Source: a virus (Duplodnaviria > Caudoviricetes). Taken from it: DNA of 64,000 nucleotides. The notes under the pieces are model-generated. The model did no database searches and was not told the origin of the DNA. It worked only from the letters and a program-made list of their open reading frames with translations. The stretch spans positions 21,270 through 85,269 of IMG/VR virus record IMGVR_UViG_3300025936_000002; one strand, written 5' to 3'. Both the position numbers and the translations under genes were made by a program. Numbering within the stretch: the first letter of the stretch is position 1; every line of letters begins with the position of its first letter. This document shows positions 13,914 to 50,829 of the stretch, in pieces.

Positions 13914-14417
13914 CTAGCGCCCCTTTTTGGTCTTCGGCGTGGCCCTCAGCCGATTTGAGATCCAAATCAAGCCGAGCGCGGTCAAGGCACCGAGCGCCAA
14001 CTGTTGCCAGAAGGGAAGCAGCCTGAAGCGCATAAATAGGCTTGTCTGCGCGCCGTAGGGGCTGTGCACAACTGAAATTGGGGGCACCCCGCCACCACCT
14101 CCGGGCACTGGGGCTGCAACGTGAGGGAGGCCGACCTCCTCAGCCACGCCAACTAGAAACTCGGCGAGACCCTTAGCAGACGTCACCGAGCTGTCTTGCT
14201 GGCTCCATTGAGCCATGACTCCTGTAGCCGTACTGGAGGTCTCAGCACTAGGGCAAATGGATTGATAGCATTTACCTGTGGCCACCCACGCCAAGGAGGC
14301 GTAGGCCCCTTGCTTGGTATTGGCGCCCCAGAGGCCGTCTACGGCAACCCGCGGAAAGCCTCCGACCGCTGCGAAGCGGTTGATCACGTTTTGTAGGGCG
14401 GTTACGGCGGGATCCAT
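13914..14417 (-). CDS. tail-anchored protein with a peptidoglycan-binding-like N-terminal motif
   Basis: ALQNVIN...VAVDGLWGANT; C-terminal TM plus basic tail; start at MDPAV follows an extended -10 box. Confidence 0.65.
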   Translation of the reverse strand: MDPAVTALQNVINRFAAVGGFPRVAVDGLWGANTKQGAYASLAWVATGKCYQSICPSAETSSTATGVMAQWSQQDSSVTSAKGLAEFLVGVAEEVGLPHVAAPVPGGGGGVPPISVVHSPYGAQTSLFMRFRLLPFWQQLALGALTALGLIWISNRLRATPKTKKGR

Positions 14418-14427
14418 CGCACCTAAG

Positions 14428-14436
14428 ACCCTACCA
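14428..14436 (-). promoter_or_regulatory. extended -10 TGGTAGGGT
   Basis: 10 nt before ATG 14417. Confidence 0.5.
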
Positions 14437-14444
14437 AAATCCTC

Positions 14445-14453
14445 TGGTAGACT
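14445..14453 (+). promoter_or_regulatory. extended -10 TGGTAGACT
   Basis: 8 nt before ATG 14462; back-to-back with the minus-strand box. Confidence 0.6.
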
Positions 14454-14461
14454 CGAGAAAA

Positions 14462-15337
14462 ATGGCGCCCGATTGTTATCCGTGGTGGCACGCAAAGTTT
14501 GAGCCGTTCCGGGCTCAACCGATCTACGTTAGCTCAGGCTGCGCGATCAATGCGATCGGCAACGTCGCGTGCGAGCCGGAGAGGATGCGCGCCGACGCCG
14601 AGGCGTTCCTCCGCGCCCATGGATTTCTCAGCTCGCTATCGCTCGAGGCTTACACCCTCGCGCGGTACATGCAAGGTGAGGTCGGTGGGGGGCATCCGCC
14701 GGGAACGCTGGAGGAAGCCGTTGCCGTCGGTGAAGCGGCAGTAAATCGAGCCAAGCTCGAAGGCAAACGCGATGCAAACGCGATTCTACTGTATCGCCAG
14801 AATCCCTCTCACCCTAACTACGGTTGGTATGGGCCGATCCACGGCGGGACGGGAACCACGACGGCGCCGTATGGTCGATGGGCCACGACCGGGGTTGACC
14901 CGACGGTCTTATCTTGCCTCTTGGCCGACTTGATCGTATCCGGCCAAAGCGGCAACTTTTCCAAGGGCGCCGACGATCAAGCCGGCATCCAGTACACGGC
15001 CAATTTTCCGTCGCTGCCAGCCTATGTAACGTATCTTGCCAACAACCACGGGTTTTGGGTTGGCCCCTTGGTTGGCGTGGACCACTGGCGAACCTTCTTG
15101 GTTCGCAACCAACGAGGCGAGACAGCGAGCACTCCATGGGGCGCCGAGCGGGTCAAGTTCACCCTCGACTACCTGAACATGGACATGGCTGCCTCCGGCG
15201 GCCGGAAGATGCCCCAGCCTTGGTCAAAGGATCTTCCGATGTGCCCTCGAAGCGGCGCGTTGTGGATCGCCGGGCTACTTGGCCTCACGATCGGTGCCTT
15301 GGCCTTTAGCCACGGCTGGATCAAGACGCCGATTTAG
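14462..15337 (+). CDS. tail-anchored putative cell-wall hydrolase (SleB/Hydrolase_2-like)
   Basis: LARYMQGEVG...EEAVAVGEAAVNRA resembles the SleB N-terminal catalytic-Glu motif; C-terminal TM. Confidence 0.55.
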   Translation: MAPDCYPWWHAKFEPFRAQPIYVSSGCAINAIGNVACEPERMRADAEAFLRAHGFLSSLSLEAYTLARYMQGEVGGGHPPGTLEEAVAVGEAAVNRAKLEGKRDANAILLYRQNPSHPNYGWYGPIHGGTGTTTAPYGRWATTGVDPTVLSCLLADLIVSGQSGNFSKGADDQAGIQYTANFPSLPAYVTYLANNHGFWVGPLVGVDHWRTFLVRNQRGETASTPWGAERVKFTLDYLNMDMAASGGRKMPQPWSKDLPMCPRSGALWIAGLLGLTIGALAFSHGWIKTPI

Positions 15338-15581: not shown

Positions 15582-15906
15582 GACGCAATGATCGTCGGGA
15601 AGATCGGTCGCAGTAGCTCTAACATCGCTTCGGCATAGACGCGTATTTCATATTGCGCATGACGACCCATCGCCGCCTAGCATACGTTGACGGTCTGCCA
15701 CCTTGGCTGCTAAACCTAGAAACCAACATGTCCCGCAACCCGACCAAGCCATCCTGCTGCACGCGGCCGATCGTTCGGCCGGCTCCGACCATGCCCAAGC
15801 GGCCCTCCTCGCCGCGGCCTATCGCGCGGCCTCGATAGTTTCCGCGGCATGCTGAAACCATTACGTTGGTGGTCTGCCACGAACCTGTGATAGCCTCGAA
15901 AGCGCC

Positions 15907-16177: not shown

Positions 16178-16414
16178 ATGGCGAAGAAAGCAGCCGGCTG
16201 CGCACGCAAGACGATCCGATTCAAGACCAAGCGGGGCAAGGTCATCCAGTTCTCAGGCCACAGCGGTAAGGCCTGCGGTCCTCGGCCCAAACCCAAGACG
16301 GGACACCTCAAGGTGTACCAAAACGCCTTGGCTTCAGCCTCACGAAGCTGCAAGCGCAAGAACCTGAAGCGAGGCGCGTTCCTCAACTGCGTCGCCAGCG
16401 CGATGCCTCGTTAG
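16178..16414 (+). CDS. small basic Cys-containing protein (putative DNA-condensing core protein)
   Basis: K/R-rich, 78 aa, 4 Cys; TGGTAGATT (16160..16168) 9 nt upstream. Confidence 0.7.
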   Translation: MAKKAAGCARKTIRFKTKRGKVIQFSGHSGKACGPRPKPKTGHLKVYQNALASASRSCKRKNLKRGAFLNCVASAMPR

Positions 16415-16445: not shown

Positions 16446-16673
16446 ATGATGTGGTTGTGGATCGTTGCAGCTATATGCCTCTACGCATTCATCGGCGGGG
16501 CAACCTTTGGGGTAGCAAAGCGTCTCGATCTGGGGCCCGACTACTGCACGGCCGGCGTAGTTATGTGGCCGCTCGCGTGGATAGCTTTATTGCTTTCGCT
16601 GCTCTTCTACCTCGGCATGCGCTTGGAGTATGTGTTGCCCGCAATGATCGCGAGACGGAAGCAGCGCCCATGA
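16446..16673 (+). CDS. small two-TM membrane protein
   Basis: Two hydrophobic stretches; TACAAT 6 nt upstream. Confidence 0.65.
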   Translation: MMWLWIVAAICLYAFIGGATFGVAKRLDLGPDYCTAGVVMWPLAWIALLLSLLFYLGMRLEYVLPAMIARRKQRP

Positions 16674-16819: not shown

Positions 16820-17090
16820 GCAGACCGAGGCGCCGTTGCGCGCGCTCGATCACCAGTACGATCGAATCGTCGCTAACCTCGATCCCTTTGGGCGGGAGCG
16901 ACGAGTCGTCCAACGCTGCGGAGACCGCTCCGGCGGCAGCTTGGACCTTCAGGTGAGCATCTACGGCCTTCACGGCTGCAGCTTGGAGGGCCTGCTCTCC
17001 AGTCGAGCTGCCCTGCGCCAACCGCCGGCGTGGTGTTGCCATGATCATCTCCCCTTCACCGAGGCGATCGAGGCCCCGTGAACCGATCAT
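16812..17090 (-). CDS. hypothetical protein
   Basis: 92-aa ORF after the membrane/coiled-coil gene. Confidence 0.5.
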   Translation of the reverse strand: MIGSRGLDRLGEGEMIMATPRRRLAQGSSTGEQALQAAAVKAVDAHLKVQAAAGAVSAALDDSSLPPKGIEVSDDSIVLVIERAQRRLGLPS

Positions 17091-17472
17091 GCAGCTTGCC
17101 TAGCACCTCCGTCAACACCTCTGCCGACTTGCTTGTCTGCTCGCTGATCGTGCCAACGACGGCAGTGAACTCCTTGCGCATGGCGTCCTCGTGGACGCGG
17201 TTGTCGCTGTAGATGTGCCGCAGTGCCTCAGCGTGCTCCTTCGCCTGTGCGGCGATTTTAGCTTCGCACTCGGCACGAATCGCCACCTCGCGTGCGTTGC
17301 GCTTCTCGAGTTCCACAGCGTTGGCCTTGTCGGCATCCGCTTTGGCCCCCTCCGCTTTGCTGATGCGCGTATCAGCCCACTTGAACAAGAACGCCACGAC
17401 TGCAGCCAACACGCCCACCGCCGCCATGCCCTGCCATGGCTCGACGTTCGCAGCGACGGTAACGAGGCTCAC
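17056..17472 (-). CDS. N-terminal TM plus coiled-coil protein (holin/lysis-accessory-like)
   Basis: One TM followed by a heptad-rich region; TGATATGAT (17479..17487) 6 nt before GTG 17472. Confidence 0.6.
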   Translation of the reverse strand: MSLVTVAANVEPWQGMAAVGVLAAVVAFLFKWADTRISKAEGAKADADKANAVELEKRNAREVAIRAECEAKIAAQAKEHAEALRHIYSDNRVHEDAMRKEFTAVVGTISEQTSKSAEVLTEVLGKLHDRFTGPRSPR

Positions 17473-17562: not shown

Positions 17563-17768
17563 TTTACAATATCGCGCTCTCGACGAACAGGGCCAAAGCC
17601 ATCGGCGGCAGTATCGATGAGGATCCGAACCACCTTACGTTGCCTTAGTCGTTCTGCAATTTCTCGTGTGTACTTACCGAAGCCGGCGCCGGCACCAATG
17701 GTGCAATCAGCCTCCATGGCCCTCGCGGCATCTAGTTCATCGCGGCGCTTCATCGCTTTAGGCCTCAA
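17559..17768 (-). CDS. hypothetical protein
   Basis: 69-aa ORF downstream of the thioredoxin. Confidence 0.4.
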   Translation of the reverse strand: MRPKAMKRRDELDAARAMEADCTIGAGAGFGKYTREIAERLRQRKVVRILIDTAADGFGPVRRERDIVN

Positions 17769-18123
17769 CGGCTGCGCGGAGAATATCGTAGAGCTGCTGA
17801 TCGCCTACAGCACCCTCATACTTGACCGGATGTTCGTAGCGCCTAAACAAGACGGTGGTGGGCAGCCCAACTACTGCCAGCTCATCTGCCACCTTGTTGA
17901 TCTGCGGATCTGCGCTCTGAGCATCCAAGAGCAGGATCGGAATTTCGTCCTCGGCGAAGGACTGTCCCTTATCACCGAAGACGAGGCGATGGCCGTAGCC
18001 TTGCCACCGCTTCACTTGATTCTCGAGCCGCGGTTTGAACTCTTCGCAGGCAGGACATCCCCGCATCGCAAAGACTACGATCACGGCTGGGCAATGCTCG
18101 AAGCTCATGGCATTTCTTCCCAA
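17758..18123 (-). CDS. thioredoxin-fold protein
   Basis: VIVVFAMRGCPACEEFKPRL ... VVGLPTTVLF. Confidence 0.85.
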   Translation of the reverse strand: MGRNAMSFEHCPAVIVVFAMRGCPACEEFKPRLENQVKRWQGYGHRLVFGDKGQSFAEDEIPILLLDAQSADPQINKVADELAVVGLPTTVLFRRYEHPVKYEGAVGDQQLYDILRAAVEA

Positions 18124-18895: not shown

Positions 18896-19780
18896 TCAGA
18901 ATTGCGGCAGATCGAGGATAGGGCGGCCTTGGGCGCGGCGTTGGATGGCCTTCAGGACCACGAGCGCTCCGACGCCAGCAACCACCGTGAAACCGGTCCA
19001 CTGCAGCCATCCCCACGGCTTGTTTTGGCCAGGCAGCGCAAACTTGGGCTTGTCGACGATCTTGTTGCAGGTGGCAACGCACGCATCGGTTTGGCCACCT
19101 TGACCAGTGCAGGTTTTGAGGCATTCGAGACGAGCGGCGGTGTAATTGGCGAACGCGTTGGCTTGCTCCGCGACTTGCTTGGAGTTGGATTCTTGGACCG
19201 CGCTCGTCTCGAGGTAGTGCATGATTGCGACGATCGCTACGGATACAGCAATAGCGATACCGGCAATTGCGATCAGGACTATCGGCAGAACACCCAAGCC
19301 GTTCGTGGCGGTTTGGCTTCGCGCCGCTTGAACCTGCAGGAGCGTCGAAAAGCTCGGCGCCCGTTCAGGATTCAACGCAAATTGATCTTGGGTGACGATC
19401 TGGATCTCGTTGGTCGACAGCCGCTGCGCCTTCTTGGTTGGCGTCATAGCCGCCCTGAGCGCCCCCGAGAGTGAGTTTCCACCCCCCTCGCAATTCATTT
19501 GCCAGGCAGTTTCGCCGGAGACGCCCTTCCAAGCGAACAGGGTCGGCGCTGTAGGTAGCTCGGGCACACCCTGCTCGCCGTTGGCCCGCAGCGTCGCCAG
19601 CATACCCGCCTGCGTGTTGTAAGTGGCCAAGGCCCACAGGTTGTAGGCCTTTACCTCGTCGCAGGTAGCCTCGCCGACTTGGAGCAGGCCAGCGATGTTG
19701 CCTGCCGCCCTCCGCATCGCCTGGTAGAGGCGCTCGATGTTGTCGGCGATCGTCTTGAGCCTGGTGGCGTCGTCGGCCAT
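18896..19780 (-). CDS. two-TM membrane protein with a Cys cluster (putative virion membrane protein)
   Basis: TNGLG directly before TM1; CLKTC..CVATC; C-terminal TM plus RR. Confidence 0.75.
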   Translation of the reverse strand: MADDATRLKTIADNIERLYQAMRRAAGNIAGLLQVGEATCDEVKAYNLWALATYNTQAGMLATLRANGEQGVPELPTAPTLFAWKGVSGETAWQMNCEGGGNSLSGALRAAMTPTKKAQRLSTNEIQIVTQDQFALNPERAPSFSTLLQVQAARSQTATNGLGVLPIVLIAIAGIAIAVSVAIVAIMHYLETSAVQESNSKQVAEQANAFANYTAARLECLKTCTGQGGQTDACVATCNKIVDKPKFALPGQNKPWGWLQWTGFTVVAGVGALVVLKAIQRRAQGRPILDLPQF

Positions 19781-19810: not shown

Positions 19811-20086
19811 CTAGTCATCCTCCAGTAAGCACAGCGCGGTTTGAAGCATCTGCCTCAGCTTGGCCTTGACGAGCGGCACGGTCGATTCATGGACGCCGAT
19901 CGAAATACGACCCCGCCAAAGATGCTCCCAATGCTCAACCTCAATATTGATTGAGCCATGGTCCTCAGAATGATCGGCTTTGAACATCATCGGTTGGAGC
20001 GGCATCGCAGACCAAGCTACAGCTTTGATCTGACAAGTGCTGCCACGCCAATCACGCCTATCCCCAAGAGGCTCCAAGTCCACCAC
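19811..20086 (-). CDS. hypothetical protein
   Basis: 91-aa ORF; true start probably later than in the track. Confidence 0.4.
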   Translation of the reverse strand: MVDLEPLGDRRDWRGSTCQIKAVAWSAMPLQPMMFKADHSEDHGSINIEVEHWEHLWRGRISIGVHESTVPLVKAKLRQMLQTALCLLEDD

Positions 20087-20325
20087 GGCCAGCCACCAAA
20101 ACCAAAACCACCTAGGCCGGATTCCACCCGTCGAAGGCGTGTATAGTAGTCGGGCACCTCGTAGAGATGATCGAGAGCGATCTCATACGCGATTTGCGGA
20201 TCGCGCGTGTGTTCCATCTCGACGCGGATTCCCTCTTGGATCTGCCATGGATCGACATCGATCGGCCCCATGCCAGAGGATTTACCTCCAGGGATGCGTT
20301 CAGGTCGCGGCGGCCAAACCAACAT
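20017..20325 (-). CDS. DUF5661-like domain with a C-terminal TM anchor
   Basis: GIRVEMEHTRDPQIAYEIALDHLYEVPDYYTRL, then SGLGGFG and a TM. Confidence 0.8.
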   Translation of the reverse strand: MLVWPPRPERIPGGKSSGMGPIDVDPWQIQEGIRVEMEHTRDPQIAYEIALDHLYEVPDYYTRLRRVESGLGGFGFGGWPWWTWSLLGIGVIGVAALVRSKL

Positions 20326-22051: not shown

Positions 22052-22759
22052 CTAGGTCACGTTGCGCTTGATCAGGCCGTAGAGATAGCTCTTGATGTCG
22101 GCAAACGTCAAGTTATCGCCGCCATCCGAGGCGGGCTGGACGATGACCGGCGGCGCCTCGGGGTTGAACTCGAGCCGATACGCGATGTTCTCGCGCATCC
22201 AGATCGGCAGAACGAGCGCGTTGCGATCGCGGGGCGACGGAACGCCGTTCTGCGCGAGCTCGAAGTTGGCGTTGGTGCTGAACACGTTGAAGCCATGCCC
22301 CTGCGGGTAGTCCTGGATCACACCGGACGTGTACACCTTGTCGTTGTACTTGAACTCCAGGTAGGTCACGCGATCGACGTTGAACAGCGTCCGCAGCGTG
22401 GCCGGATCCGACAGTGCACCGTTGGTGTCCGGGAACTGCGGCTGCGTCGCGTTCTCGGCCGGGCGCTCGACGCGGACCATCTTGATCCCGATGCCGTAGA
22501 TGAACATCTCCCACGACATCGGCAGACCGGTATCACCGGCGCGAGCGAGGTTGCTATCCACGCGGGTGCTAGTACGTGTGCCGCCGTTGATCGGCTGCGC
22601 GCGACCGTTCACGAACGCCTGCAGACCGAAGGTCTGCCCGTTGGTGAACTGCACGGTGCTATACAGCTTGTCATCGATCCAGTCTTCGATCTGGATCGTC
22701 TGCCCGCTGGGCAGGGTGAACGTGGTGGTTCCTGGTGCTACTCCGACAGTGCCGGCCAT
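22052..22759 (-). CDS. putative major capsid protein (jelly-roll-like)
   Basis: 235 aa, beta-rich, no TM; strongly C/G-ending codons; SD GGAGAA; last gene of a structural operon. Confidence 0.55.
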   Translation of the reverse strand: MAGTVGVAPGTTTFTLPSGQTIQIEDWIDDKLYSTVQFTNGQTFGLQAFVNGRAQPINGGTRTSTRVDSNLARAGDTGLPMSWEMFIYGIGIKMVRVERPAENATQPQFPDTNGALSDPATLRTLFNVDRVTYLEFKYNDKVYTSGVIQDYPQGHGFNVFSTNANFELAQNGVPSPRDRNALVLPIWMRENIAYRLEFNPEAPPVIVQPASDGGDNLTFADIKSYLYGLIKRNVT

Positions 22760-22827: not shown

Positions 22828-23448
22828 CTAGCGACCGGCCCCGAGGAGCGTGGCGCCGTAGGCGGCGGCGAGGTTGTGCGTCGGGGGACCGCCGGCGCCG
22901 AGGAGCTGGATCGATGCTGCCGACGGAGTGCCGAGCAGCGAGATGGGCGGAGCGCCGCCGCCGGGGCCCGCGAGGTGCGAACCCGCAACGCCCGGGATTG
23001 CACCCTGAGCATGCGAGACCGGCGAGAGCTCGGGGAGCCCGAGACCGTTGAGCGCCCGCGTGGCCGGATAGCCCAGCCCGTTGAGCGCCCGCGCCTGCGG
23101 GAACCCGAGACCCTTGACCTCAGGCGGCACGACCTTGGCCGGCACCGTCGCTTCGCCCATCATCCACTTGCCGATCAGAGGCAGCCCCGCGACGAGGAGC
23201 GCCGTCACCGTGCTGGCAACGGCTGCGCCGCGGGTCGACTTCATCGAAGCCAGCACCGCAGATGTCGCGAGGCCGAGACCAAGGCCGATCGCTTCGGCAT
23301 GCTGAGAGCCGCCGATGTGGCGTGCCGCAAGCGTACCGACGCCCGCTACGCCACCACCGATCAGAGCACCATACGTCGGGTTGAGACGCCCGCCCTTGAA
23401 CATCCCGAGCCCCAGCAGATCGACGCCCGAGGAAATCAGCTTTGCCAT
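22828..23448 (-). CDS. membrane protein with repeated xxGLG motifs (putative scaffold/membrane-capsid linker)
   Basis: Three hydrophobic segments; LLGLG, VKGLG, LNGLG x2. Confidence 0.75.
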   Translation of the reverse strand: MAKLISSGVDLLGLGMFKGGRLNPTYGALIGGGVAGVGTLAARHIGGSQHAEAIGLGLGLATSAVLASMKSTRGAAVASTVTALLVAGLPLIGKWMMGEATVPAKVVPPEVKGLGFPQARALNGLGYPATRALNGLGLPELSPVSHAQGAIPGVAGSHLAGPGGGAPPISLLGTPSAASIQLLGAGGPPTHNLAAAYGATLLGAGR

Positions 23449-26772: not shown

Positions 26773-27126
26773 ATGGCCCAGCTTGCCGCCCGCAGCTACT
26801 ACGACGAGACCGGAACCTACGAGGGCGGATCTGGCCGAACGGTCGATACAAGCCCAATGCCGCCGACACCACTACCGCGGCCCGTCACGAGCCCCAACCC
26901 AGTGCCGTCAGACGGCCTACCGCCACCCATCAATCCAAGCGACGCACCGATCGTGACGCCATCTATCCCGCCTGCACCCTACCCGACGAACACAGGCATC
27001 GTCCCGCCGCATCTACAGATGACTTGGATCCAAGCCCATCCGATGGTGATCCCGGTTGGGATCGGCTTGGCTGGGCTCCTCTTGGGCCTCACCATCGGCA
27101 TCGCCGTTGGCAGCCGCAAGCGCTAG
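26773..27126 (+). CDS. Pro-rich tail-anchored membrane protein
   Basis: Pro/Thr stalk, C-terminal TM, SRKR. Confidence 0.75.
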   Translation: MAQLAARSYYDETGTYEGGSGRTVDTSPMPPTPLPRPVTSPNPVPSDGLPPPINPSDAPIVTPSIPPAPYPTNTGIVPPHLQMTWIQAHPMVIPVGIGLAGLLLGLTIGIAVGSRKR

Positions 27127-27515
27127 CGAAGTAGCGCGCCGGCGCCGCCGAGGACGGCCAATCCGAGCAGCGCGACACCACCGATGACCAGCCACTTGCG
27201 GTTGGTCCAGGCCCACGAGTCGAAGCCGAAGCCGAGCCCGTGAGGCGGATCTATCCACCGCGCCTTGGTGATGCCTAGACCAGTGAGGCTCGTGCAGGGT
27301 AGACCGGGGCAACACGGCGCTTGGCCGTTGGTGCACGCCAACGGATCACCTTGGATGCGTTGTGGAACGTAGCTGAGCGGCTGGATCGTCCGCTGCCCGT
27401 TGGTCCAGTCGCCTGGAATCTTGCAATGCGGATTGAGCTTGATGTTGATTGCAGGATCCTCAGAAAATTGCCAATCAGGGATCAACCCGAGTCCATGTGG
27501 TTGCGCAAACATCAT
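27123..27515 (-). CDS. Cys-rich tail-anchored protein with three GLG motifs
   Basis: PHGLG, LTGLG, PHGLG; CTNGQAPCCPGLPC; C-terminal TM. Confidence 0.7.
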   Translation of the reverse strand: MMFAQPHGLGLIPDWQFSEDPAINIKLNPHCKIPGDWTNGQRTIQPLSYVPQRIQGDPLACTNGQAPCCPGLPCTSLTGLGITKARWIDPPHGLGFGFDSWAWTNRKWLVIGGVALLGLAVLGGAGALLR

Positions 27516-27522: not shown

Positions 27523-27834
27523 TTATCTCCTCGTTCGACGCAGCGGTCTAATCTGCCAGCCAGACAAACGACGATTAGCCGCCGCGAAGTCGGCAATGTC
27601 GGAGCGCGCAAACGAAATTGCAGCATGCGCCGCATCGCGCATAGCGCGCGGATCGTCAACAGCAAGACGACGGCCATGGACGCTACGAGATCCTGCCGCC
27701 GGCGGCTTCACCGAAACCGTTTCACAGCGTTCGCCTTTGACGGTTGGGCACATCTTGACTCGATATTGATCTGTTCGATCGTTGAAGCTAACTTCGAGCT
27801 TCAAGCTACCACTCTTGAATCGCTGCTTTGCCAT
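27523..27834 (-). CDS. basic hypothetical protein
   Basis: ATG overlaps the TAA of the upstream gene (TAATG). Confidence 0.65.
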   Translation of the reverse strand: MAKQRFKSGSLKLEVSFNDRTDQYRVKMCPTVKGERCETVSVKPPAAGSRSVHGRRLAVDDPRAMRDAAHAAISFARSDIADFAAANRRLSGWQIRPLRRTRR

Positions 27835-28253
27835 TACGCAACCCTCCGCTTGCCGAAGCCTTGGGCGACGCCGATGACCGGCGTGATCACCGGGAAGGTC
27901 AAACCCATTAAGGCCCACCAGAGGGCCCAACCGATGGACTGATTGCGCCTGTAGCCGTGGTAGGCGCTCGCCGCCATGCTCGCAGTCGACAGGATCCCCC
28001 AAACCAGCCCCCAATTCACCTTGGAGCTCGCATCGAGCCACGTGAGCGCCCCCGCGACAGCCTTGCTATCCACCCCACGAGCGATCAGCGCTCGGGCTGC
28101 ATCGGTACGGGGCCCGCCGGAGGCGTAGAGCTTTAGGAACTCAGCCACCTGCGTAGACGACGGATTCGGCGACTTGAGGAGGAATCCATCGATCTCGTTG
28201 TCGAGGCCGAGCAGCTGGATCGGCGGACCTAGCAGTTGGACGGGGGCTGGCAT
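27834..28253 (-). CDS. membrane protein (two C-terminal TM segments)
   Basis: WGLVWGILSTASMAASAYHGYRR..WALWWALMG; TGGTAGGCT at 28265..28273. Confidence 0.75.
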   Translation of the reverse strand: MPAPVQLLGPPIQLLGLDNEIDGFLLKSPNPSSTQVAEFLKLYASGGPRTDAARALIARGVDSKAVAGALTWLDASSKVNWGLVWGILSTASMAASAYHGYRRNQSIGWALWWALMGLTFPVITPVIGVAQGFGKRRVA

Positions 28254-28327
28254 GGTTGCTTCCGAGCCTACCACCGTTTGGCCTCAGGTCGGTAACCGTC
28301 ATGCTACCTCGGTAGCCTCGACGTCCG

Positions 28328-29454: not shown

Positions 29455-29508
29455 GGTGCCTTGGATGCTAGCACGGCTTTGGCAAACCATCGAGTTAGGC
29501 TGCTTTCA

Positions 29509-30412: not shown

Positions 30413-31909
30413 ATGCACGTGTTTCGAGCGCGAGGTCTGCACGGTCAGGGGCTATGCGGCCTCGGCGACTATCCAGCTAGCAACGGATTCTGTTGGGTCC
30501 CCGCTAGCGGGGACATCCCGGGCCACTGGGAGCGGCCATGGGCTGGTAGCAACCCAACGACGCCGTGCAAGTATCCGCCACCTGATAGCGGTGGAGCGAT
30601 CGTACGTGATCATACGAGCGGCGGGGGCGGAGGTGGCGTAACGGTGACCGAGAGCCCCAGCATCTTGGACGTCGCCAAAGGCACCATTGTCAACTTGGCG
30701 ATGGTGAACCGCCTCTTCAACGCGACGCTCAAGCAATACACAGAGCGTGAGGCGCTAGCGGTCAAGGCGCTCATGGTTACGGGGGAGGGGTTGCCCGCAT
30801 GCCCACCCGAGAGCCAACAAACCATCGACGGCAAACCAACTTGTTACGGGTTCACGCCGCGTACAGCAGCTGCAGCACTGCCTGGAGGGTTTGAAGTCCT
30901 CGGCGTCCCGTTCAACGTGTCTGAAATCGGCATTACCAAGAAGCCGCAATTCGAGCGCGTATTCACGCCAAACAATGAACAGCGGATCATGATCGAATCG
31001 ATGATCATTCGTCGATCTGATGATCTACTACTTGCTGCCCTCGGAGATGCGTTGGATCGTGCAGTCGCTGCGAGCAGTGGGGGCGTCATGACCCCCAATG
31101 ATCGAGATCGAGCGATTGCCAAGCTGTCGGCGGCGCAGGCATTCGCGTTGCTGCCCGATTGGCAAACGGTGATCCCAGGAATGGCACTGCGTTCGGATCC
31201 GCCGCGAAGCTATGAGCTAGATGTCGAAGGTGGATTCAGTAAATGGCACGATCGGGGCGGATTTCTGATCTCACGCGCTATCGCTACCGGTCAATACTTC
31301 ATCAACGTCCCTCAACCGGATCAAGCGCGCCAGGCGGGAACCATCTCGCCACGGGTGTGCACGTCAATTCTGTGCGCCTGCAGTCCAACCGGTACACCAT
31401 CGTGCATTGCCGATTGGATCCCATCATCAGATGGGGGGCGCGTTCGACTTTGGGTCCATGTTGCAATCGATCCTAACGGATCGATGAAGATGACTCTGAA
31501 GCATGATGATCCTAGTTGGCTAGAGAAGGCTGGTGGAAAAATCCATGCCTTCGTGGATGTCTTGAACAAAGCAATATGCACAGCGGCCCCAGCCATCAAA
31601 ACGCAAACAACTTCGGTCATCGCCGACAAGTACGTCGACGCCAACGGCAAGGCGTGTACTAAAGGCGCGACGGGCTGCAACCTTGTTCAGGCCTCAGCCG
31701 CGGCAACGGGGGGCGTTGGCCTCCTGAATTTTGCGGTAGGAACGTACTGCAGCGTCATTGCGAGCAACCAACAAAACCCTAAGGAGCCGGTGCCCCCAAC
31801 CCCGACTCCGGCCCCCATCACCACAACTCCACCGTGGTTGCATTATCTGCCCTGGGTGATTGGCGGCCTGGCACTCGGTGCCGGAGCGGTAGTTATCACG
31901 CGTCGCTAG
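30413..31909 (+). CDS. large Cys-rich tail-anchored protein (putative spike/envelope protein)
   Basis: 498 aa, many Cys, LCGLG near the N-terminus, Pro/Thr stalk, C-terminal TM plus RR; TGATAGGCT 8 nt upstream. Confidence 0.85.
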   Translation: MHVFRARGLHGQGLCGLGDYPASNGFCWVPASGDIPGHWERPWAGSNPTTPCKYPPPDSGGAIVRDHTSGGGGGGVTVTESPSILDVAKGTIVNLAMVNRLFNATLKQYTEREALAVKALMVTGEGLPACPPESQQTIDGKPTCYGFTPRTAAAALPGGFEVLGVPFNVSEIGITKKPQFERVFTPNNEQRIMIESMIIRRSDDLLLAALGDALDRAVAASSGGVMTPNDRDRAIAKLSAAQAFALLPDWQTVIPGMALRSDPPRSYELDVEGGFSKWHDRGGFLISRAIATGQYFINVPQPDQARQAGTISPRVCTSILCACSPTGTPSCIADWIPSSDGGRVRLWVHVAIDPNGSMKMTLKHDDPSWLEKAGGKIHAFVDVLNKAICTAAPAIKTQTTSVIADKYVDANGKACTKGATGCNLVQASAAATGGVGLLNFAVGTYCSVIASNQQNPKEPVPPTPTPAPITTTPPWLHYLPWVIGGLALGAGAVVITRR

Positions 31910-32160: not shown

Positions 32161-32622
32161 ATGATCCATCGCGGCGGAACCCTCCTAGGAACCAACGAGA
32201 TTGAGAACCTCCAGCGAGCCTTGAGCAATCTCGCCGTGGCCACACAGCGCCCGGCGATCAACGCCAAGGTTACCGGCGTCATGGATGATCAGACCATGAC
32301 GGCCTTGAGCGCTGGGCTTGGCCTGCTTACCGAGCAGTTACCGAAGTGGCTCTACCTTGGCCTGCAGGGTGTTCTGATCCTAGGTGTTACGAGCTCGCAG
32401 GCGAAAAAGTACGCCGGCGAGTACGCAGCGCAGCTCACGCTCGCGGCGAACACCGCCGCGGTCAAGTTCAAAACGACACCTCCAGTAATCGCGCCTGCAT
32501 CTCAACCTCAAATCGTCGGATTCTTTGCGCCGGGTTGGTACAAGACGCCGATCGGATTGGGCTTGATTGCTCTGGCGTTATTCGTCGGATACAAGATCTT
32601 CATCGCCCCCAAGGCAGCCTAA
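32161..32622 (+). CDS. tail-anchored protein with a peptidoglycan-binding-like motif
   Basis: LQRALSNL...AKVTGVMDDQT; C-terminal TM; resembles 13914..14417. Confidence 0.7.
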   Translation: MIHRGGTLLGTNEIENLQRALSNLAVATQRPAINAKVTGVMDDQTMTALSAGLGLLTEQLPKWLYLGLQGVLILGVTSSQAKKYAGEYAAQLTLAANTAAVKFKTTPPVIAPASQPQIVGFFAPGWYKTPIGLGLIALALFVGYKIFIAPKAA

Positions 32623-32631: not shown

Positions 32632-32925
32632 ATGAAGCGCATCACGTTGGGCGCCCTCGGCGCGTATCCTCAAACGGACGGAAAATGTTGGATGCCGCCG
32701 GGGTCAATCTCCGCACCAAGTGGCGGTTGGGTTGCAATCAATGATCCACTTACACTATGTACCTACAAGGGTCCTGCTGCAGGCGTAGTATCAACGCCGG
32801 GAGCTACGACGCCGACCCTACCGAGCGTGATGCCATCTTGGTGGGATCGCATCCCGACTTGGCTCAAGCTCGTGGGCGGCGTGGCGGTGGCCTATCTTGG
32901 CTACACGTATTTCATCAAGAAGTAG
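32632..32925 (+). CDS. small tail-anchored membrane protein
   Basis: LGAYPQTDGKCWMP...C; WWDRIPTWLK plus TM plus KK. Confidence 0.75.
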   Translation: MKRITLGALGAYPQTDGKCWMPPGSISAPSGGWVAINDPLTLCTYKGPAAGVVSTPGATTPTLPSVMPSWWDRIPTWLKLVGGVAVAYLGYTYFIKK

Positions 32926-33300
32926 ATGAGTCTAGTCGACGATATCGTAGCGCTCGGGACGCAGGCGCCGGCCGTCGTCGGGGGCCTAGTACGCGTCGTC
33001 AAGGCCGTCGGTCCAGTCCTGCCGACGATCCAGTTGGTATTCGATGATCCGGCCTTCCCACGGGTCATCGCCCAGATCAAAGAACTTCACGAGATCGAGG
33101 CGGCCAAGGCGGGCCCATCGACCCCTGAGGCTCCAACACCCCCCGCAGCCAAGGCGGGGATCGGCCTCAATAAGGCCGTGCCGTTCCTGGATGCCGTTAT
33201 CTACGCACAGCGTAACCCGTGGGCGCCTTGGGTGGCTGGCGGCTTGGTTCTGCTCCTGATCGGCGGGGTTGGCTACAAGCTTGGCAGACGGCGGCGGTAG
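32926..33300 (+). CDS. tail-anchored membrane protein
   Basis: C-terminal TM plus GRRRR; ATG directly after the TAG of the previous gene. Confidence 0.75.
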   Translation: MSLVDDIVALGTQAPAVVGGLVRVVKAVGPVLPTIQLVFDDPAFPRVIAQIKELHEIEAAKAGPSTPEAPTPPAAKAGIGLNKAVPFLDAVIYAQRNPWAPWVAGGLVLLLIGGVGYKLGRRRR

Positions 33301-34217: not shown

Positions 34218-34460
34218 ATGACCGTCGGTGTTGCGCCTGGAACCACGACCATCCACCTTGGCTTGGGCGAACCCAACAAGCAGTTGGTGCTGCACAACCC
34301 ATGGGTGTCTGGTGACGTCGCCTTGGGGGCGATTCAGACCAAGGCCAAGATCCGATGGGACATCATCGGGGTCATCGGCGGAGGATCCCTGATCATAGCC
34401 CTTGCAGCCGGCCTTATCGCCAGCGCATTCGAGGCGGGCTCTGACAGACGGACGACGTAA
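34218..34460 (+). CDS. small membrane protein sharing the capsid-protein N-terminal motif TVGVAPGTTT
   Basis: 10/10 aa identity to aa 4-13 of 22052..22759; one TM near the C-terminus. Confidence 0.75.
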   Translation: MTVGVAPGTTTIHLGLGEPNKQLVLHNPWVSGDVALGAIQTKAKIRWDIIGVIGGGSLIIALAAGLIASAFEAGSDRRTT

Positions 34461-37602: not shown

Positions 37603-38145
37603 ATGGCGCTCGGCGTTGTTTTGACTCCCTACGGACACATCCCAGGATCGTTCCCGACAGCCGTAGACTTCGATCACAGAAGGGCCGAGACGTTCAGGTC
37701 TCCCTTCGATCCTAGGTGGTACGAGCGAGGCGAAGCCGGTATGTACTACGATACGCAGCTCGGAGCGACACCCACTGACTTCGAGCTCTCGCGGAAGATC
37801 GGCTTCATGCCGATCAAGACGGGATGGGTCGTCACGAAGCAGGGCTACCTACCCGGTCGGTGGTATCCCCCCGATGGGGGTTGGCCGGGCCAGCCGGCCC
37901 TCACTCGCTCCAAGGTGGTCCCCTTCGACCGCTACTCGCTGCGGGGGCTCGGCGAGCCCGAGCCTCAACCGATCCCACTACCGCCGCCTGCAACCGCGGA
38001 TGACGTCTTGGCCGTGATGGCAGCCCATAACGATCGCGTCTTCGCCTTGGCTTTGGTCTCCACCACAGCCGTGACCATCTCTGCCCTGATCACGCTTCTA
38101 CGGACGCTCAAGCTCCTACGAGAGGGTCGCTCACGTGGCGAATAA
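37603..38145 (+). CDS. tail-anchored protein with an LRGLG motif
   Basis: 180 aa; LRGLG, Pro linker, TM, basic tail. Confidence 0.75.
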   Translation: MALGVVLTPYGHIPGSFPTAVDFDHRRAETFRSPFDPRWYERGEAGMYYDTQLGATPTDFELSRKIGFMPIKTGWVVTKQGYLPGRWYPPDGGWPGQPALTRSKVVPFDRYSLRGLGEPEPQPIPLPPPATADDVLAVMAAHNDRVFALALVSTTAVTISALITLLRTLKLLREGRSRGE

Positions 38146-40643: not shown

Positions 40644-42650
40644 TCAAGCTCGCGCACGACCATTCTTGGCCGGCTTGGTTGACGGTTTGGCGCTCGGAGG
40701 TGGGGGCGTCTCCTCTTCTTCATCGCCGTTGTCATCGTCGTCATCCTCGTTCTCTTCCTGCGGCCCTCGCTTCAAGATCTCGACGACGCCATCTCGGTAC
40801 TTCTGTGGCGCATCGGGAACCAAGACGGAGACGAACTCGGCAAGGAGACCCTGACCAAGCAGCTCGATCATGGCCGGAATCGGGATCTGTCGTTGCTGCG
40901 CCATCGTCGCGGCGATGACGATTACCTCAGCTGCACGATCGGGATGGATCCCAGGGACGTCTGTCGTCTTCTCGACGATCTTGCCGCTGGAGAGCATCTC
41001 CTCGGCTGCGTGGACAAACTCGGCAACCCCCTTGCGGAGATCGAGGACATCATCCAACGCAGGCCCAAACCACTCTTCGTCAGTGCGACCCCACAGCCGC
41101 GTCGGCTTGGTCGGTGGTTGGGGTGTTGCCTTGGTTGGCTCGGTAGGCTCCATAACGGGCGGCCCCGCCAAGGCCGGCGGCTGCGGGAACGCTGCGGGGT
41201 TGGCCGCACGCGCCTGGACTTCCATCACGTGAGCCTGGGCTTGGGCGATCGTGGCCTGCGCCTGCGCTTGCGCCACGGCCTCCTTCTGCTTCGCACCCAC
41301 GAAGCGCTCGAGGAACTCCTTGACGTTGTCCATGCCCTTGGTCACGGCATCGATCACACCACCGCCTTGCGGTTGCGTGTTGAGGGCAGTCTCCAGCACG
41401 CGTTGCTGCATATCGAGGACCGTGCTCGTCATGCGCGTCGTCCGCTCGACGGCCTGCTCGACGCCTTGCTGGCTTTCGCGGGCGAGGGCAACCATCTCCC
41501 TCGGATTCATCATGAAGGCCTGGACGCGGGCCATGGCCGCGCTGTTTTCGCGAGCCATCTCCTTCAGAACCTCAGCGTGTTGCCGTTGATTCTCCGTCAT
41601 CAACGTGATGAACGGGTCGGCCTTGCTCGATGCATTTTGCATCTGCGTCATCATGTTCGTGATCATCGTCTGGAACTCACGTTGCATCGTCTCGATCTGG
41701 CGCTGAGTTGCCTCGTAGGCCCGCTTTGCCTCCTCGGCTTGGACGCGCATCTGCTCGCGGATCAAGGTCTCACGGCGTTCGGCCTCCTGCTCACGACGTT
41801 GGTTGTCTGTGTTGGTCTCGAGTCGACGATTGTGCTCCTTCAGCTCGTTGAACTGGGCTTGCATCGCGAGTAGCTCGGGCGATGGCCCCTTGGGTGTTGC
41901 AGCCTCTTTGAGGCTTGTCGCCAGGCTCGTCATCATCGCTTCAAGCCGCTGGAAACGATCGTTGTTTGCTAGCCGCTCGCGTTCGAGCTCGGCCTTGTGT
42001 CGAGTCTCCAACGTCTCTCGCTCACGTCGCTCGTTCTCGTCGCGGAGCTTCTTGAGCTCCAACTCACGTTCACGGCGATCTGCCTCAGCCTGCCAAAGCG
42101 TATATTGCTGCGATCCAACCTGTGGCGGTGGTGGCATTGGGTAGCCGCCGGGGGCAGTTGGCGCGAATGGCGGCTGCGGAAACATGGGCGGCATGCGAGA
42201 TCCCTGCGGTTGGGGGTTGGGGGCAGAAAAGATGGTTGTGGTCTCGGGATTCACCGCGTCTTGAAGCGGTGGAGGAATCGTCTCTGGATACGTGTTCGTC
42301 GGGTAGAATGGCCGCCAAGTCATCTTCTGCGGCTGCTCGGACGAATCGACGACGCTGATCTCATAAAGGCCGCCGCCTGACCACTGTGTGACGAGGTAGC
42401 CCTCCAAGCGTCGAATCTCTTCCTTCGTGAAGCCCTCACCATTCTCGTGATTCGAGTCGGAGGGCCAAACTGGAATCGGCGATCGTTGATTGTTCTTGAG
42501 CCGATCGATCCGAACAGTTAGCGGCTCGTTCATCGCCGCCAACTTCGCATCGTCGAACGTACCGTGGTTCTGCCGTGGTGCTGCAGCCATTGTTGGACGA
42601 TGGTGGTCACGCCTCCAAGACGTGTCAAATTTGACGGTTGTAATCGTCAT
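40644..42650 (-). CDS. large coiled-coil protein (putative scaffold/tape-measure-like)
   Basis: 668 aa: globular N-domain, Pro linker, long E/R/Q/M coiled coil, acidic then basic tail. Confidence 0.85.
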   Translation of the reverse strand: MTITTVKFDTSWRRDHHRPTMAAAPRQNHGTFDDAKLAAMNEPLTVRIDRLKNNQRSPIPVWPSDSNHENGEGFTKEEIRRLEGYLVTQWSGGGLYEISVVDSSEQPQKMTWRPFYPTNTYPETIPPPLQDAVNPETTTIFSAPNPQPQGSRMPPMFPQPPFAPTAPGGYPMPPPPQVGSQQYTLWQAEADRRERELELKKLRDENERRERETLETRHKAELERERLANNDRFQRLEAMMTSLATSLKEAATPKGPSPELLAMQAQFNELKEHNRRLETNTDNQRREQEAERRETLIREQMRVQAEEAKRAYEATQRQIETMQREFQTMITNMMTQMQNASSKADPFITLMTENQRQHAEVLKEMARENSAAMARVQAFMMNPREMVALARESQQGVEQAVERTTRMTSTVLDMQQRVLETALNTQPQGGGVIDAVTKGMDNVKEFLERFVGAKQKEAVAQAQAQATIAQAQAHVMEVQARAANPAAFPQPPALAGPPVMEPTEPTKATPQPPTKPTRLWGRTDEEWFGPALDDVLDLRKGVAEFVHAAEEMLSSGKIVEKTTDVPGIHPDRAAEVIVIAATMAQQRQIPIPAMIELLGQGLLAEFVSVLVPDAPQKYRDGVVEILKRGPQEENEDDDDDNGDEEEETPPPPSAKPSTKPAKNGRARA
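42624..42635. promoter_or_regulatory. 12-bp palindrome GTCAAATTTGAC
   Basis: Perfect palindrome near the divergence of 40644..42650 and 42672..43169. Confidence 0.35.
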
Positions 42651-44206: not shown

Positions 44207-44482
44207 ATGAAGACATACAAGCTGACAAAGCACATTCAAGCTGTTCATTGGGATGGTCAGACCTTGGATACTATCTTGCCGCTGTTTCAAGGCCGCGAGC
44301 TCGTAGTCCATTGGACTCGAGCCGTTGAGGATCGGACAGTTACATTCCTTGTTGATGGCTACCACAAGCATTTGACGGCTGGAGATTGGCTCATCATGGG
44401 TGACAAGCTAGATGTAGCGAAGCATGTCGTTGACGAAGGTTGCGCCACAGCTACGTCCCTTGGTACATTAGTCGAATTGTGA
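44207..44482 (+). CDS. hypothetical protein
   Basis: AVHWDG...LTAGDWLI; TGATAGAGT 7 nt upstream. Confidence 0.6.
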   Translation: MKTYKLTKHIQAVHWDGQTLDTILPLFQGRELVVHWTRAVEDRTVTFLVDGYHKHLTAGDWLIMGDKLDVAKHVVDEGCATATSLGTLVEL

Positions 44483-44772
44483 GCGACGTAAACGATCTCC
44501 GCGCGGCTCTAGGTTTCCCTCCAGTCGCGCTTCCTGGCGTTCGCGCTCAGCCGCCGAACACGCCAGCCGGAACCCCAGGCAACGCCCCAATGTTGCCGAT
44601 ATCGACGCAGGCGCAACGAGCGCTCGGCTGCGTTGGTTGTAGCGGAGCCGTCGGGCTCGGCGTGGGCGATCTGACCTCGTGGTACGGCCGGATCCCGATG
44701 TGGCTCAAGATCAGCGTCGGGGTGCTGGGTTTGGTCGGGATCGGTTACGGCGTCTATCGCTTCGTTCGTTGA
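44479..44772 (+). CDS. small tail-anchored membrane protein
   Basis: CVGC, AVGLG, WYGRIPMWLK plus TM. Confidence 0.7.
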   Translation: MSDVNDLRAALGFPPVALPGVRAQPPNTPAGTPGNAPMLPISTQAQRALGCVGCSGAVGLGVGDLTSWYGRIPMWLKISVGVLGLVGIGYGVYRFVR

Positions 44773-46065: not shown

Positions 46066-46067
46066 CA

Positions 46068-48821: not shown

Positions 48822-48830
48822 CTAGAGATC

Positions 48831-49328
48831 TCACCGCCGAAGCCCGGTACGCGGCTTCGGCTCGTTGATCAAGCCACCCAAGAACGAGATTGCTTCTTCG
48901 ATTTGAAGGCGCGCGGCAGCCTTTAGGCTAGTGGCGTCGATCGTGTCTGGTGGTACCCAGGGCCACGCCCATATGCCAATCCCAGGCCCATAGAACGTAA
49001 CGAGGATCGCCTCATCGGCAAGCCTGAAGTCGATCGACACCTCCCGACTCTCGATCCTACCTTGAGCCAGCCATCTCAGCCTAAGAGAAATTTTCGACCC
49101 CACCACATTCCACAAAACGTCGTGATCGCGATGAGCAAAGGCGTCGGCCGCTGAGGCGAGCCACATGTGAAGCGCGGCAAACGCGATGTGCTTCGCGACT
49201 TGCCCGAGTCGTAGCTCGCCGTCGGATCCTGCTGAGGCGAACGTCATCCCAGACGAAATGACCTGCAGGATTTCGGTGGCGTCGTTCTTGAGCGTCATGG
49301 GATCCATCCTACTTGGTCGATCTGCCAC
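48831..49328 (-). CDS. hypothetical protein
   Basis: 165-aa ORF. Confidence 0.55.
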   Translation of the reverse strand: MADRPSRMDPMTLKNDATEILQVISSGMTFASAGSDGELRLGQVAKHIAFAALHMWLASAADAFAHRDHDVLWNVVGSKISLRLRWLAQGRIESREVSIDFRLADEAILVTFYGPGIGIWAWPWVPPDTIDATSLKAAARLQIEEAISFLGGLINEPKPRTGLRR

Positions 49329-49535
49329 TTCCGGGGGAACGGGGACTCACGTCGCCACGGAGCTGTCGCGGTCGAGTCGACTGCTGATCTTTGATGGCGG
49401 GTTAGCCGCTCGCCCTCGACGGTCTCGACGACACATATCCAGATCGGAGAGACAGATGCATTTCGTCAAGGAGACGTCACGCCTTGCGCTTGGATCAGCA
49501 GCCGACTCCACCGTCACAGCCGTAGCCGATCGAGT

Positions 49536-49985
49536 TCATGTTGGGTCCTCTAGCTCTACGAGACCGTACCTCAACGCAAAGCGCGTTAGATCTGCGTTGT
49601 TACGCAGACCTAGCCGCTTTAAGATGTGGGCGCGATGGGTGTCTATGGTCTTGACGCTAATCCCCAACTGCTCGGCAATTTCACTGTTTTTCTTGCCCAT
49701 CACGAGCTCGGACATCACCTGCCGCTCGCGAGTAGTCAACGTCATTACAGGATGCGTGGGATCGTCGGGGCCGGGTTCCGCCAACGTCGGATCGTCGAGT
49801 TTGATGTGGTCAATGCTGAGCCGAGCTACGGCCTCGCGGATGAGCCGCGAGCGGTTCGACCGAAACCAACCACGTCGCTTCAGCTCCTCGACCTTTTGAT
49901 CTAAATCTTCGAGATCCTTTACATAGATCGAGACACAGATAACCTTGTAGTTTTTGGTTTCCGGATCAGCAGCATCGTTTGACAT
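49536..49985 (-). CDS. RHH plus LuxR-HTH fusion regulator
   Basis: ICVSIY..DL..LDQKV..LKRRG..NRSRLIR; LTTRERQV..GKKNSEIAEQLGISVKTIDTHR; TGGTAAGTT 7 nt upstream. Confidence 0.85.
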   Translation of the reverse strand: MSNDAADPETKNYKVICVSIYVKDLEDLDQKVEELKRRGWFRSNRSRLIREAVARLSIDHIKLDDPTLAEPGPDDPTHPVMTLTTRERQVMSELVMGKKNSEIAEQLGISVKTIDTHRAHILKRLGLRNNADLTRFALRYGLVELEDPT

Positions 49986-50019
49986 GCTGCATAACTTACC
50001 ACATATCGCTTAGTAAATT

Positions 50020-50829
50020 CTAGTGCCTCGCGATCGTTCCGCCGCCAATCAAACCAAGTCCGACAGCCCCTAGCATCCAGCCGTTGCGCCACCAACGCTT
50101 AGGGGGCGGCGGGGGCGTCGATGCTAATGCAATCTGCCCATTTGGCAACTTTTCGCCAGTCGGAAACGATGGCCACATGGCCTTGGTTGATGCCTCCATT
50201 GCAAGTACCGATACTACGCGTTTCAAGGCTTCGGCGTTCAAGGCTAACAACCCTCGTCGAGTTGTGGCATCCCAATTAGAATTGGCGATCCTGATACTAA
50301 TTTTGTCAAACGTCTTTTGATCCATCAGCGGTTTGTACCAAGATGCCGGTAGTGCAACATCAATAACGATTCTGAGCATCCCCGCCAACACTTCAGGGGC
50401 TAGCGGAACCTCAATGTTGTAGCCGCCCATGTCAACCACACGTGGTGGGCTAAACAAGGTCGCCAGAAAGTAAGCGCGGCCCCCGGCCTCGGAGCCTAGC
50501 CACTCTGTGATCCCACTCGGCCAAGCCGGCCACCACCATCCGCCGGTAGCGGCCTTGTAGATTCCGTCGATGAGTTCTTGTTGTAGGCTCGCTCGGACGT
50601 AGCGGCTATCGACGAGCGAAGGTGGAGACAACGTCTTCTCGAGAATAGAACTCTGCGCGAAGATCGCACGCGCCTCTTTGTAGTGCGCGGCGTCGAACAC
50701 CAGTTCTCGCATCGCGAGGCCGAACGTCCCGTCGAAATCCAACTTGGTTCGCTGCACCTCCGGGCCAAATTCTCCGCCGGAGAAGAAGTACCGATCGAGG
50801 ATGTCGATGTTCTCGGAGACGGTTGCCAT
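50020..50829 (-). CDS. tail-anchored protein
   Basis: Poly-Pro, KRWWR, then a C-terminal TM; TGGTATGCT 7 nt before ATG 50829. Confidence 0.75.
   Translation of the reverse strand: MATVSENIDILDRYFFSGGEFGPEVQRTKLDFDGTFGLAMRELVFDAAHYKEARAIFAQSSILEKTLSPPSLVDSRYVRASLQQELIDGIYKAATGGWWWPAWPSGITEWLGSEAGGRAYFLATLFSPPRVVDMGGYNIEVPLAPEVLAGMLRIVIDVALPASWYKPLMDQKTFDKISIRIANSNWDATTRRGLLALNAEALKRVVSVLAMEASTKAMWPSFPTGEKLPNGQIALASTPPPPPKRWWRNGWMLGAVGLGLIGGGTIARH

Follow-up and report, generated by a model that had tools for sequence, protein, structure and literature searches.

Conserved C-terminally anchored membrane proteins made without signal peptides mark an uncultured lineage of large bacterial viruses without tailed-phage structural genes

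To our knowledge, all membrane-containing phages described so far have genomes of only 10-45 kb, with most of the membrane proteins anchored at the N-terminus. PRD1 (Tectiviridae) encodes many small membrane proteins beside its capsid genes. Its P7 and P14 proteins have a C-proximal transmembrane (TM) segment, and P7 is a peptidoglycan-cleaving enzyme without a signal peptide whose TM segment lies at residues 221-236 of 265. The other membrane proteins of PRD1 are N-anchored, with eight N-terminal anchors against three tiny C-anchored peptides of 42-47 residues, and in P23-77 eight N-anchored proteins compare to four C-terminal calls. In bacterial cells, the tail-anchored proteins DjlC, Flk and TssL of Escherichia coli and the candidates of Streptomyces coelicolor have a single, moderately hydrophobic C-terminal TM segment, no signal peptide and a cytoplasmic N-terminal domain (PMC6794478, PMC3426401, PMC3087755). 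Here we analyze a stretch of 64,000 nucleotides, hereafter the window, from the IMG/VR virus record IMGVR_UViG_3300025936_000002, in which a sequence-only reading had listed fourteen genes for proteins of this kind. As outlined below, such proteins are far more frequent in this virus than in a host sample or two tailed phages, and their genes cluster around that of a putative capsid protein.

The source contig is 85,269 bp long, the window covers its bases 21270-85269, and the GC content is ~59%. Both contig ends carry the same 127 bp as an exact repeat, so this is a complete genome, and its circular map measures ~85.1 kb. A custom dynamic-programming caller based on codon bias and ribosome-binding sites gave 159 genes, and TM segments and signal peptides were called by self-written hydropathy rules, complemented by one AlphaFold helix. 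The fourteen listed genes, named here by their first coordinate (Table 1), are all real open reading frames (ORFs), and each product has a hydrophobic C-terminus that is uncharged over 16-57 residues. For the best stretch of 16/17 residues, the Kyte-Doolittle (KD) mean ranges from 1.36 to 2.32, and the segments end 2-19 residues ahead of the stop codon. The short basic tail reported to follow the segment is present in 13 of the 14 proteins (net charge +1 to +6; 0 in 34218), and a single TM segment is likewise found in 13, with two in 18896. No N-terminal signal peptide was detected by the hydropathy rule, the best N-terminal 15-mer having a KD value of ≤1.59 in all fourteen, and homologues begin with hydrophilic residues as well, with few exceptions (see below). 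Signal peptides might have been missed upstream of the annotated starts, and 13 of the 14 genes have no in-frame extension, or else a short or hydrophilic one. The sole hydrophobic extension belongs to 27123, for which the upstream sequence of the orthologues is hydrophilic and the full-length orthologues align from the short start. What did not hold was the description of a Pro/Thr stalk as a common feature, since it is present in only 4 of 17 proteins, with a median of 13% compared to 11.6% in the proteome.

With the gene at 27834-28274, which was absent from the earlier list, and three genes upstream of the window, the curated set amounts to ~18 anchored proteins. The ten residues ahead of the helix contain 10.4% tryptophan (2.5% overall), and the tails 24% Lys and Arg together (8% overall). 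The helix cores are of only moderate hydrophobicity (mean KD 1.7 versus 2.0) and rich in Gly (21% versus 10.7% in host TM segments). Apart from the Trp residues there is no conserved signature motif before the helix, and cysteines are not enriched in the set (1.1% versus 1.4%).

For comparison between genomes, a protein was counted as C-anchored when it contained an uncharged 16-mer with a KD value of ≥1.5 ending ≤20 residues from the C-terminus, and no N-terminal hydrophobic segment. By this rule, 21 of 125 proteins (17%) of this virus are C-anchored, whereas 200 within-protein shuffles gave a mean of 3.65 and a maximum of 10. The count was 1/77 for Myxococcus phage Mx8 and 0/45 for phiC31, together 1/122 for these two high-GC tailed phages (Fisher p = 5e-6), and 8/249 for 280 kb of a Gemmatimonadota chromosome, our host sample (p = 1e-5). 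C-anchored proteins outnumber N-anchored ones in this virus (21:4), the reverse of what is seen in the host sample (8:42) and in Mx8 (1:11). With a stricter single-TM rule the fraction was 7-9% here and 1.2-1.3% in the controls. Since 4-5 of the proteins picked up by the permissive rule are likely soluble, such as those at 20713, 46068 and 51767, the curated number of ~18 is the figure to use. That tail-anchored proteins are uncommon in bacteria was borne out, as they make up ~1-3% of the host sample, and 20 curated candidates are known from the whole S. coelicolor genome (PMC3087755). The viral proteins differ from these cellular ones in their share of the proteome (12-17%), their unusually basic tails and their Trp belt.

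Relatives were found with a profile built from homologues of the putative capsid protein, which gave 14 IMG/VR loci and four GTDB loci. In 16 related 20-kb loci, 124 of 481 proteins (26%) were C-anchored. Three complete relatives with terminal repeats had 17/134, 12/124 and 14/227 such proteins (6-13%), mostly encoded ≤10 kb from the capsid-candidate gene. One GTDB locus (L020/G001) is a divergent integrated relative inside the complete 4.74-Mb chromosome of a Gemmatimonadota metagenome-assembled genome (CP070815.1, ~3.69-3.72 Mb), and this provirus is the best lead to the host. Of the anchored proteins in the surrounding 120 kb, 11 fall in the provirus segment at 38-65 kb and none in the host flanks (0-30 and 70-90 kb); the only two other calls, at 92-94 kb, look unrelated. 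The same chromosome carries a second, weak capsid-like match at 1,189,055-1,189,330. For ten of the anchored families of the window, orthologues were found in the related loci, and these orthologues retain the anchor and the basic tail while the helix sequence itself drifts. C-terminal anchors without a signal peptide are a conserved hallmark of this uncultured lineage of bacterial viruses with genomes of 85-138 kb and without tailed-phage structural genes.

The best characterized member of the set is the 291-residue product of 14462. Its AlphaFold2 model has a predicted local distance difference test (pLDDT) score of 91 and a terminal helix at residues 266-283. In a VIA comparison, residues 55-215 were superimposed on the SleB catalytic domain with Z-scores of 8.9 (root-mean-square deviation 3.1 Å, 114 of 122 residues) and 8.5, the next match being the transglycosylase MltG at Z 3.8, and Glu73 is invariant in 43 homologues. 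Foldseek returned no significant match for this model, and the sequence has none in Pfam or the PDB; based on the structural model, the protein has a SleB-like lytic transglycosylase fold. Of 120 homologues, 108 passed a strict anchor test and one had a hydrophobic N-terminus, and the mean tail charge was +2.7. When 50%-identity representatives were followed down to E = 1e-13, the anchor was kept in 106 of 132 full-length members; most non-anchored representatives have a TM segment at the same place followed by a longer tail, and four have a signal-peptide-like start. Two further anchored families, 13914 and 32161, align with each other and look peptidoglycan-binding by sequence, with matches to PG_binding_1 in 6 of 12 members (best E 3e-4) and to PG_binding_3 in two. 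These matches recur below threshold in 8 of 12, the listed score being 12.6 bits against a cut-off of 23 bits. Near the transglycosylase gene, 1.1 kb downstream and on the same strand, lies a gene for a holin-like protein of 75 residues with two TM segments (16446-16673, +), and an N-anchored coiled-coil protein resembling an i-spanin is encoded at 17056-17472 (-). A complete spanin pair was rejected, as no lipobox-containing o-spanin partner was found beside the i-spanin-like protein.

The 235-residue putative capsid protein has 390 homologues in public metagenomes, and the 120 that were listed are 67-86% identical, none of them with a Pfam domain or a name. Its AlphaFold2 model is a beta-sandwich (pLDDT 65). 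The best VIA matches are mostly single-jelly-roll capsid proteins, led by satellite panicum mosaic virus (Z 6.8) and followed by SPV1 (6.2), HCIV-1 (5.8), HHIV-2 (5.4) and P23-77 VP17 (5.2), bearing in mind that a VIA Z-score below 8 can reflect merely a common fold. Foldseek found no significant match for the model, the capsid profile matched no PDB chain sequence, and a profile comparison with P23-77 VP17 was negative. A neighbouring gene for a 165-residue protein is kept in 14 of 14 IMG/VR loci and gave a weak ESM Atlas lead to the capsid domains of PM2 P2 (0.77-0.78), the Atlas otherwise returning only unnamed viral clusters. On this evidence, a jelly-roll shell is plausible. Two candidate jelly-roll proteins side by side would recall SPV1 and the Helvetiavirae-like viruses P23-77, SH1, HHIV-2 and HCIV-1, which have an internal membrane and two single-jelly-roll capsid proteins, but there is no sequence or profile similarity to these viruses, and the genome is 3-5 times larger. 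The capsid candidate is tied to the anchored set by its N-terminus: the 80-residue anchored protein 34218 starts with MTVGVAPGTTT and the 235-residue protein with MAGTVGVAPGTTT. A small C-anchored protein with such a copy of the capsid arm is encoded in 11 related loci, and in two of these the two partners vary alike (TYT in locus L007, SYT in L011).

Two further proteins contain xGLG motifs. Beside the capsid gene, a Gly/Ala-rich hydrophobic protein of 206 residues (22828-23448, -) contains 4 of the genome's 14 [LIMV]xGLG motifs and looks like a polyprotein or cleavage substrate. A transglutaminase-like protein with an N-terminal TM segment and two xGLG motifs (28735-29490, -) is kept in 14 of 14 IMG/VR loci and is a candidate maturation protease or wall peptidase.

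The record is filed under Caudoviricetes, and we reject a tailed-phage assignment because terminase, portal, HK97-fold capsid and tail proteins were not found. None of these occurs among the families listed (25 of 31 Pfam and 25 of 36 PHROG) in a screen of 139 predicted proteins against Pfam and PHROG, or among the ten largest proteins, which were also screened. The families that were recognized include family-A DNA polymerase, topoisomerase, helicases, primase and Sak4, as well as methyltransferases, an integrase, ParB, a thioredoxin, sigma-70 region 4 proteins, the transglutaminase-like protein, a GDSL lipase and a glycosyltransferase. Full Walker A motifs are confined to Sak4, a helicase and a primase-helicase, with a degenerate match in a 67-residue ORF. 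Cultured relatives were not found, as the capsid candidate and the transglycosylase have no tblastn match in 50,697 phage records.

Table 1. Anchored proteins and other structural-block features, with window coordinates unless marked as genome coordinates.
Coordinates (strand)	Size (residues)	Features	Related loci
13914..14417 (-)	167	PG_binding-like N-domain; anchor 133-155; tail RLRATPKTKKGR (+6)	orthologues in L003, L005, L009, L018 retain anchor
14462..15337 (+)	291	SleB-like lytic transglycosylase (by model); C-terminal TM 264-287; no signal peptide	
17758..18108 (-)	116	thioredoxin-fold protein, CPAC, cis-Pro GLPT; no signal peptide; among anchored genes	kept in 11 of 14, inside structural block
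18896..19780 (-)	294	TMs 167-185 and 255-276; 4-Cys inter-TM loop; basic tail	orthologues in 6-7, distant L014-L016 included
20017..20271 (-)	84	DUF5661 (Pfam E 1e-12); WPWWTW belt; TM 64-80; tail RSKL; ORF start possibly at 20325	
22052..22759 (-)	235	putative jelly-roll major capsid protein	most conserved gene of lineage
26773..27126 (+)	117	Pro-rich; TM 92-108; tail end SRKR	no homologues in fetched loci
27123..27515 (-)	130	Cys-rich; TM 109-125; longest ORF reaches 27677	10-11 orthologues; full-length ones begin at short start, retain W-belt and anchor
27834..28274 (-)	146	C-terminal end GWALWWALMGLTFPVITPVIGVAQGFGKRRVA	15 matches
30413..31909 (+)	498	Cys-rich; Pro/Thr stalk; C-terminal TM; tail TRR	orthologues retain anchor
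32161..32622 (+)	153	PG_binding-like; TM 129-144	6-7 orthologues with GWYKTP motif and anchor
32632..32925 (+)	97	TM 80-95; tail KK	
32926..33300 (+)	124	TM 100-116; tail YKLGRRRR (+5)	anchor and basic tail kept in 5 orthologues
34218..34460 (+)	80	N-terminal VGVAPGTTT, copy of putative capsid protein arm	
37603..38145 (+)	180	TM 17 residues from C-terminus; tail net +3	9 matches in 8 loci, mostly longer than short gene call
44479..44772 (+)	97	TM 78-93; tail RFVR	
50020..50841 (-)	273	PPPPP stalk; WW belt; Gly-rich TM 255-271	weak homologues in 2 of 5 related genomes
10639-10926 (genome coordinates)		anchored, upstream of window	
11091-11513 (genome coordinates)		anchored, upstream of window	
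11519-11749 (genome coordinates)		anchored, upstream of window	

Two of the anchored proteins are related through their N-terminal domains. Those of 30413 (30413-30570) and 32632 (32632-32790) are homologous (E 6e-5, 39% identity over 51 residues), and the common domain contains cysteine in the pattern GLG-x-YP...G-x-CW-x-P. The extra 50 N-terminal residues of 30413 are the part homologous to the start of 32632, which supports the longer start of this gene; in the same way, the longer orthologues of 37603 support a longer start. Conservation could not be demonstrated for the three anchored genes upstream of the window or for 44479, which is outside the fetched flanks of the relatives.

Elsewhere in the window, a 648-residue protein (40644-42590, -) shows a strong codon bias and a C-terminus that is poly-acidic and then basic, and neither Pfam, PHROGs and PDB sequences nor the 50,697 phage records contain a match to it. 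A very Lys/Arg-rich protein of 78 residues (16178-16414, +), kept in 7 related loci, may be a genome-condensing core protein. Three adjoining paralogues of 148, 147 and 240 residues (8763-10380, -), all matching one gene of the Gemmatimonadota provirus, are possible spike or receptor-binding proteins.

The anchored genes cluster at the capsid gene, one of their products copies the capsid arm, and another is by its fold an anchored peptidoglycan-cleaving enzyme, which fits a virion membrane assembled inside the cell. The proteins are real membrane proteins that have a C-terminal anchor and no signal peptide, and as the best explanation we consider it somewhat probable that most of them are parts of a lipid membrane within the virus particle. 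Their N-terminal domains would then be located on the face that is cytoplasmic during assembly, i.e. the capsid-facing side, the moderately hydrophobic, Gly-rich helix would cross the bilayer, and the short Lys/Arg tail would point into the genome-filled lumen. By mimicking the N-terminal arm of the capsid protein, 34218 would tether the membrane to the shell, and at entry the host wall would be the target of the transglycosylase and the two peptidoglycan-binding-like proteins, a role that P7 plays in PRD1. The virus resembles PRD1 in this anchored enzyme and in having many small membrane protein genes beside the capsid candidate. It differs in that P7 belongs to an unrelated transglycosylase family (hhalign probability 0.3), and in that PRD1 has a double-jelly-roll capsid protein, the packaging ATPase P9 and a 15-kb genome, compared to 85 kb here. 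Such a membrane would be built differently from those of the known membrane-containing phages.

Several points weigh against a virion membrane. The similarity of the capsid candidate to known capsid folds is modest, with Z below 8 and a pLDDT of 65. No FtsK/HerA-type packaging ATPase was found by Pfam and PHROG among the 139 proteins, and a very divergent one is possible. The absence of this ATPase, which defines the P23-77/SH1 group, argues against membership of that group and makes SPV1 (Portogloboviridae), with its circular map and no recognizable packaging ATPase, the closer analogy in that respect. Since the membrane proteins of PRD1 and P23-77 are mainly N-anchored, the known models do not predict the pattern observed here. 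Moreover, 44479, 50020 and the three genes upstream of the window are outside the structural block and may have other jobs. Finally, by the positive-inside rule, basic C-terminal tails and a Trp belt on the N-terminal side of the helix predict an N-out, C-in orientation, and the usual place of action of peptidoglycan-directed domains and of paired cysteines is outside the cytoplasm.

The sequence-only reading had proposed that the domains face the cytoplasm during synthesis and then decorate a virion membrane assembled inside the cell. Its tail anchors without signal peptides stand, and they extend to the whole lineage, whereas the orientation is opposed by the charge pattern; we therefore infer the cytoplasm-facing domains rather than observe them, and the same applies to the virion membrane, to the route of insertion and to the roles of the single proteins. 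A basic tail after a C-terminal TM segment has indeed been read as suggesting an N-out orientation (PMC3087755). The objection is softened by three considerations. In E. coli, neither SecYEG nor YidC is needed for the insertion of moderately hydrophobic tail anchors, some of which insert spontaneously (PMC6794478). The vaccinia virion protein H3, which likewise lacks a signal peptide, is added post-translationally by its C-terminal helix, and topology predictions are presumably invalid for such proteins (PMC6336343). Lastly, the thioredoxin-fold protein encoded in the structural block is conserved and has no signal peptide, and it may oxidize virion proteins in the cytoplasm. Full-text searches found no literature linking tail-anchored proteins with membrane-containing phages.

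The anchored proteins might instead reside in the host cytoplasmic membrane, with functions in lysis, wall remodelling, superinfection exclusion or as an assembly site, and not be packaged into particles. In favour of this, the transglycosylase gene lies near the holin-like and i-spanin-like genes, and several anchored genes are close to replication genes. Yet no o-spanin lipoprotein was found, a set of ~18 proteins far exceeds any known lysis or exclusion system, anchored genes cluster at the capsid gene in every relative, and one anchored protein bears the capsid arm, so that we regard a purely host-membrane location as unlikely.

We give still less weight to an N-out, C-in arrangement, in which the domains reach the periplasm or an outer viral envelope by a signal-peptide-independent route, for instance through a cleaved short N-terminal leader ending in GLG. 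In its favour are the charge pattern and its published reading mentioned above, the peptidoglycan-binding-like and transglycosylase domains, cysteines that occur mostly in even numbers, and short GLG-ending N-terminal segments on some members. It would require, however, the export of N-terminal domains of 60-480 residues without a hydrophobic leader, and the transglycosylase family begins directly at an invariant motif. The conserved thioredoxin-fold protein could allow oxidation in the cytoplasm, and the reservation on topology predictions for tail-anchored virion proteins (PMC6336343) applies here as well.

Cleavable sorting signals for a sortase-like enzyme (PEP-CTERM, LPXTG or GlyGly-CTERM) have a similar overall shape of a hydrophobic helix followed by an Arg/Lys tail, but such systems need the N-terminal signal peptide that is absent here, only Trp residues are conserved before the helix, and a comparison of 10 members with the C-terminal sorting domains of NCBIfam gave no match at E up to 1, so we rejected this idea as very improbable. 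It is equally hard to believe that the pattern comes from chance hydrophobic C-termini, buried strands of soluble proteins or wrong gene calls, for even though the calls rely on hydropathy rules and the permissive one took in a few likely soluble proteins, the observed count far exceeds the shuffles, anchors are kept in hundreds of homologues despite sequence drift, and AlphaFold2 models a terminal helix.

Returning to the virion membrane, a more speculative extension, which we think rather doubtful, is that the virus has no packaging motor and encloses its genome by means of the anchored proteins. These would insert post-translationally into a de-energized viral membrane sheet or vesicle with their Lys/Arg tails inward, these tails would bind and condense the 85-kb DNA, and the N-terminal arms and domains would dock the jelly-roll shell on the outside. 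The virus-encoded thioredoxin would oxidize the cysteines of the anchored proteins in the cytoplasm, which is reminiscent of the cytoplasmic disulfide pathway of poxviruses; a sulfhydryl oxidase was not found here. Poxviruses differ in being eukaryotic viruses with membranes derived from the endoplasmic reticulum, and no homology to them was detected.

Thus, a widespread uncultured lineage of tailless viruses with genomes of 85-138 kb devotes 6-17% of its genes to C-tail-anchored proteins. If these proteins do belong to a virion membrane, they would provide a sequence signature for finding such viruses in metagenomes, and a natural substrate set for bacterial tail-anchor insertion, including the translocation of basic tails. 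The lineage would also be a model for how a large tailless virus joins shell, membrane and DNA without a recognizable packaging ATPase. Should the anchored proteins themselves enclose the genome without a motor, their assembly would parallel that of poxvirus crescents in a bacterial host, and the positive-inside rule would have a systematic exception.

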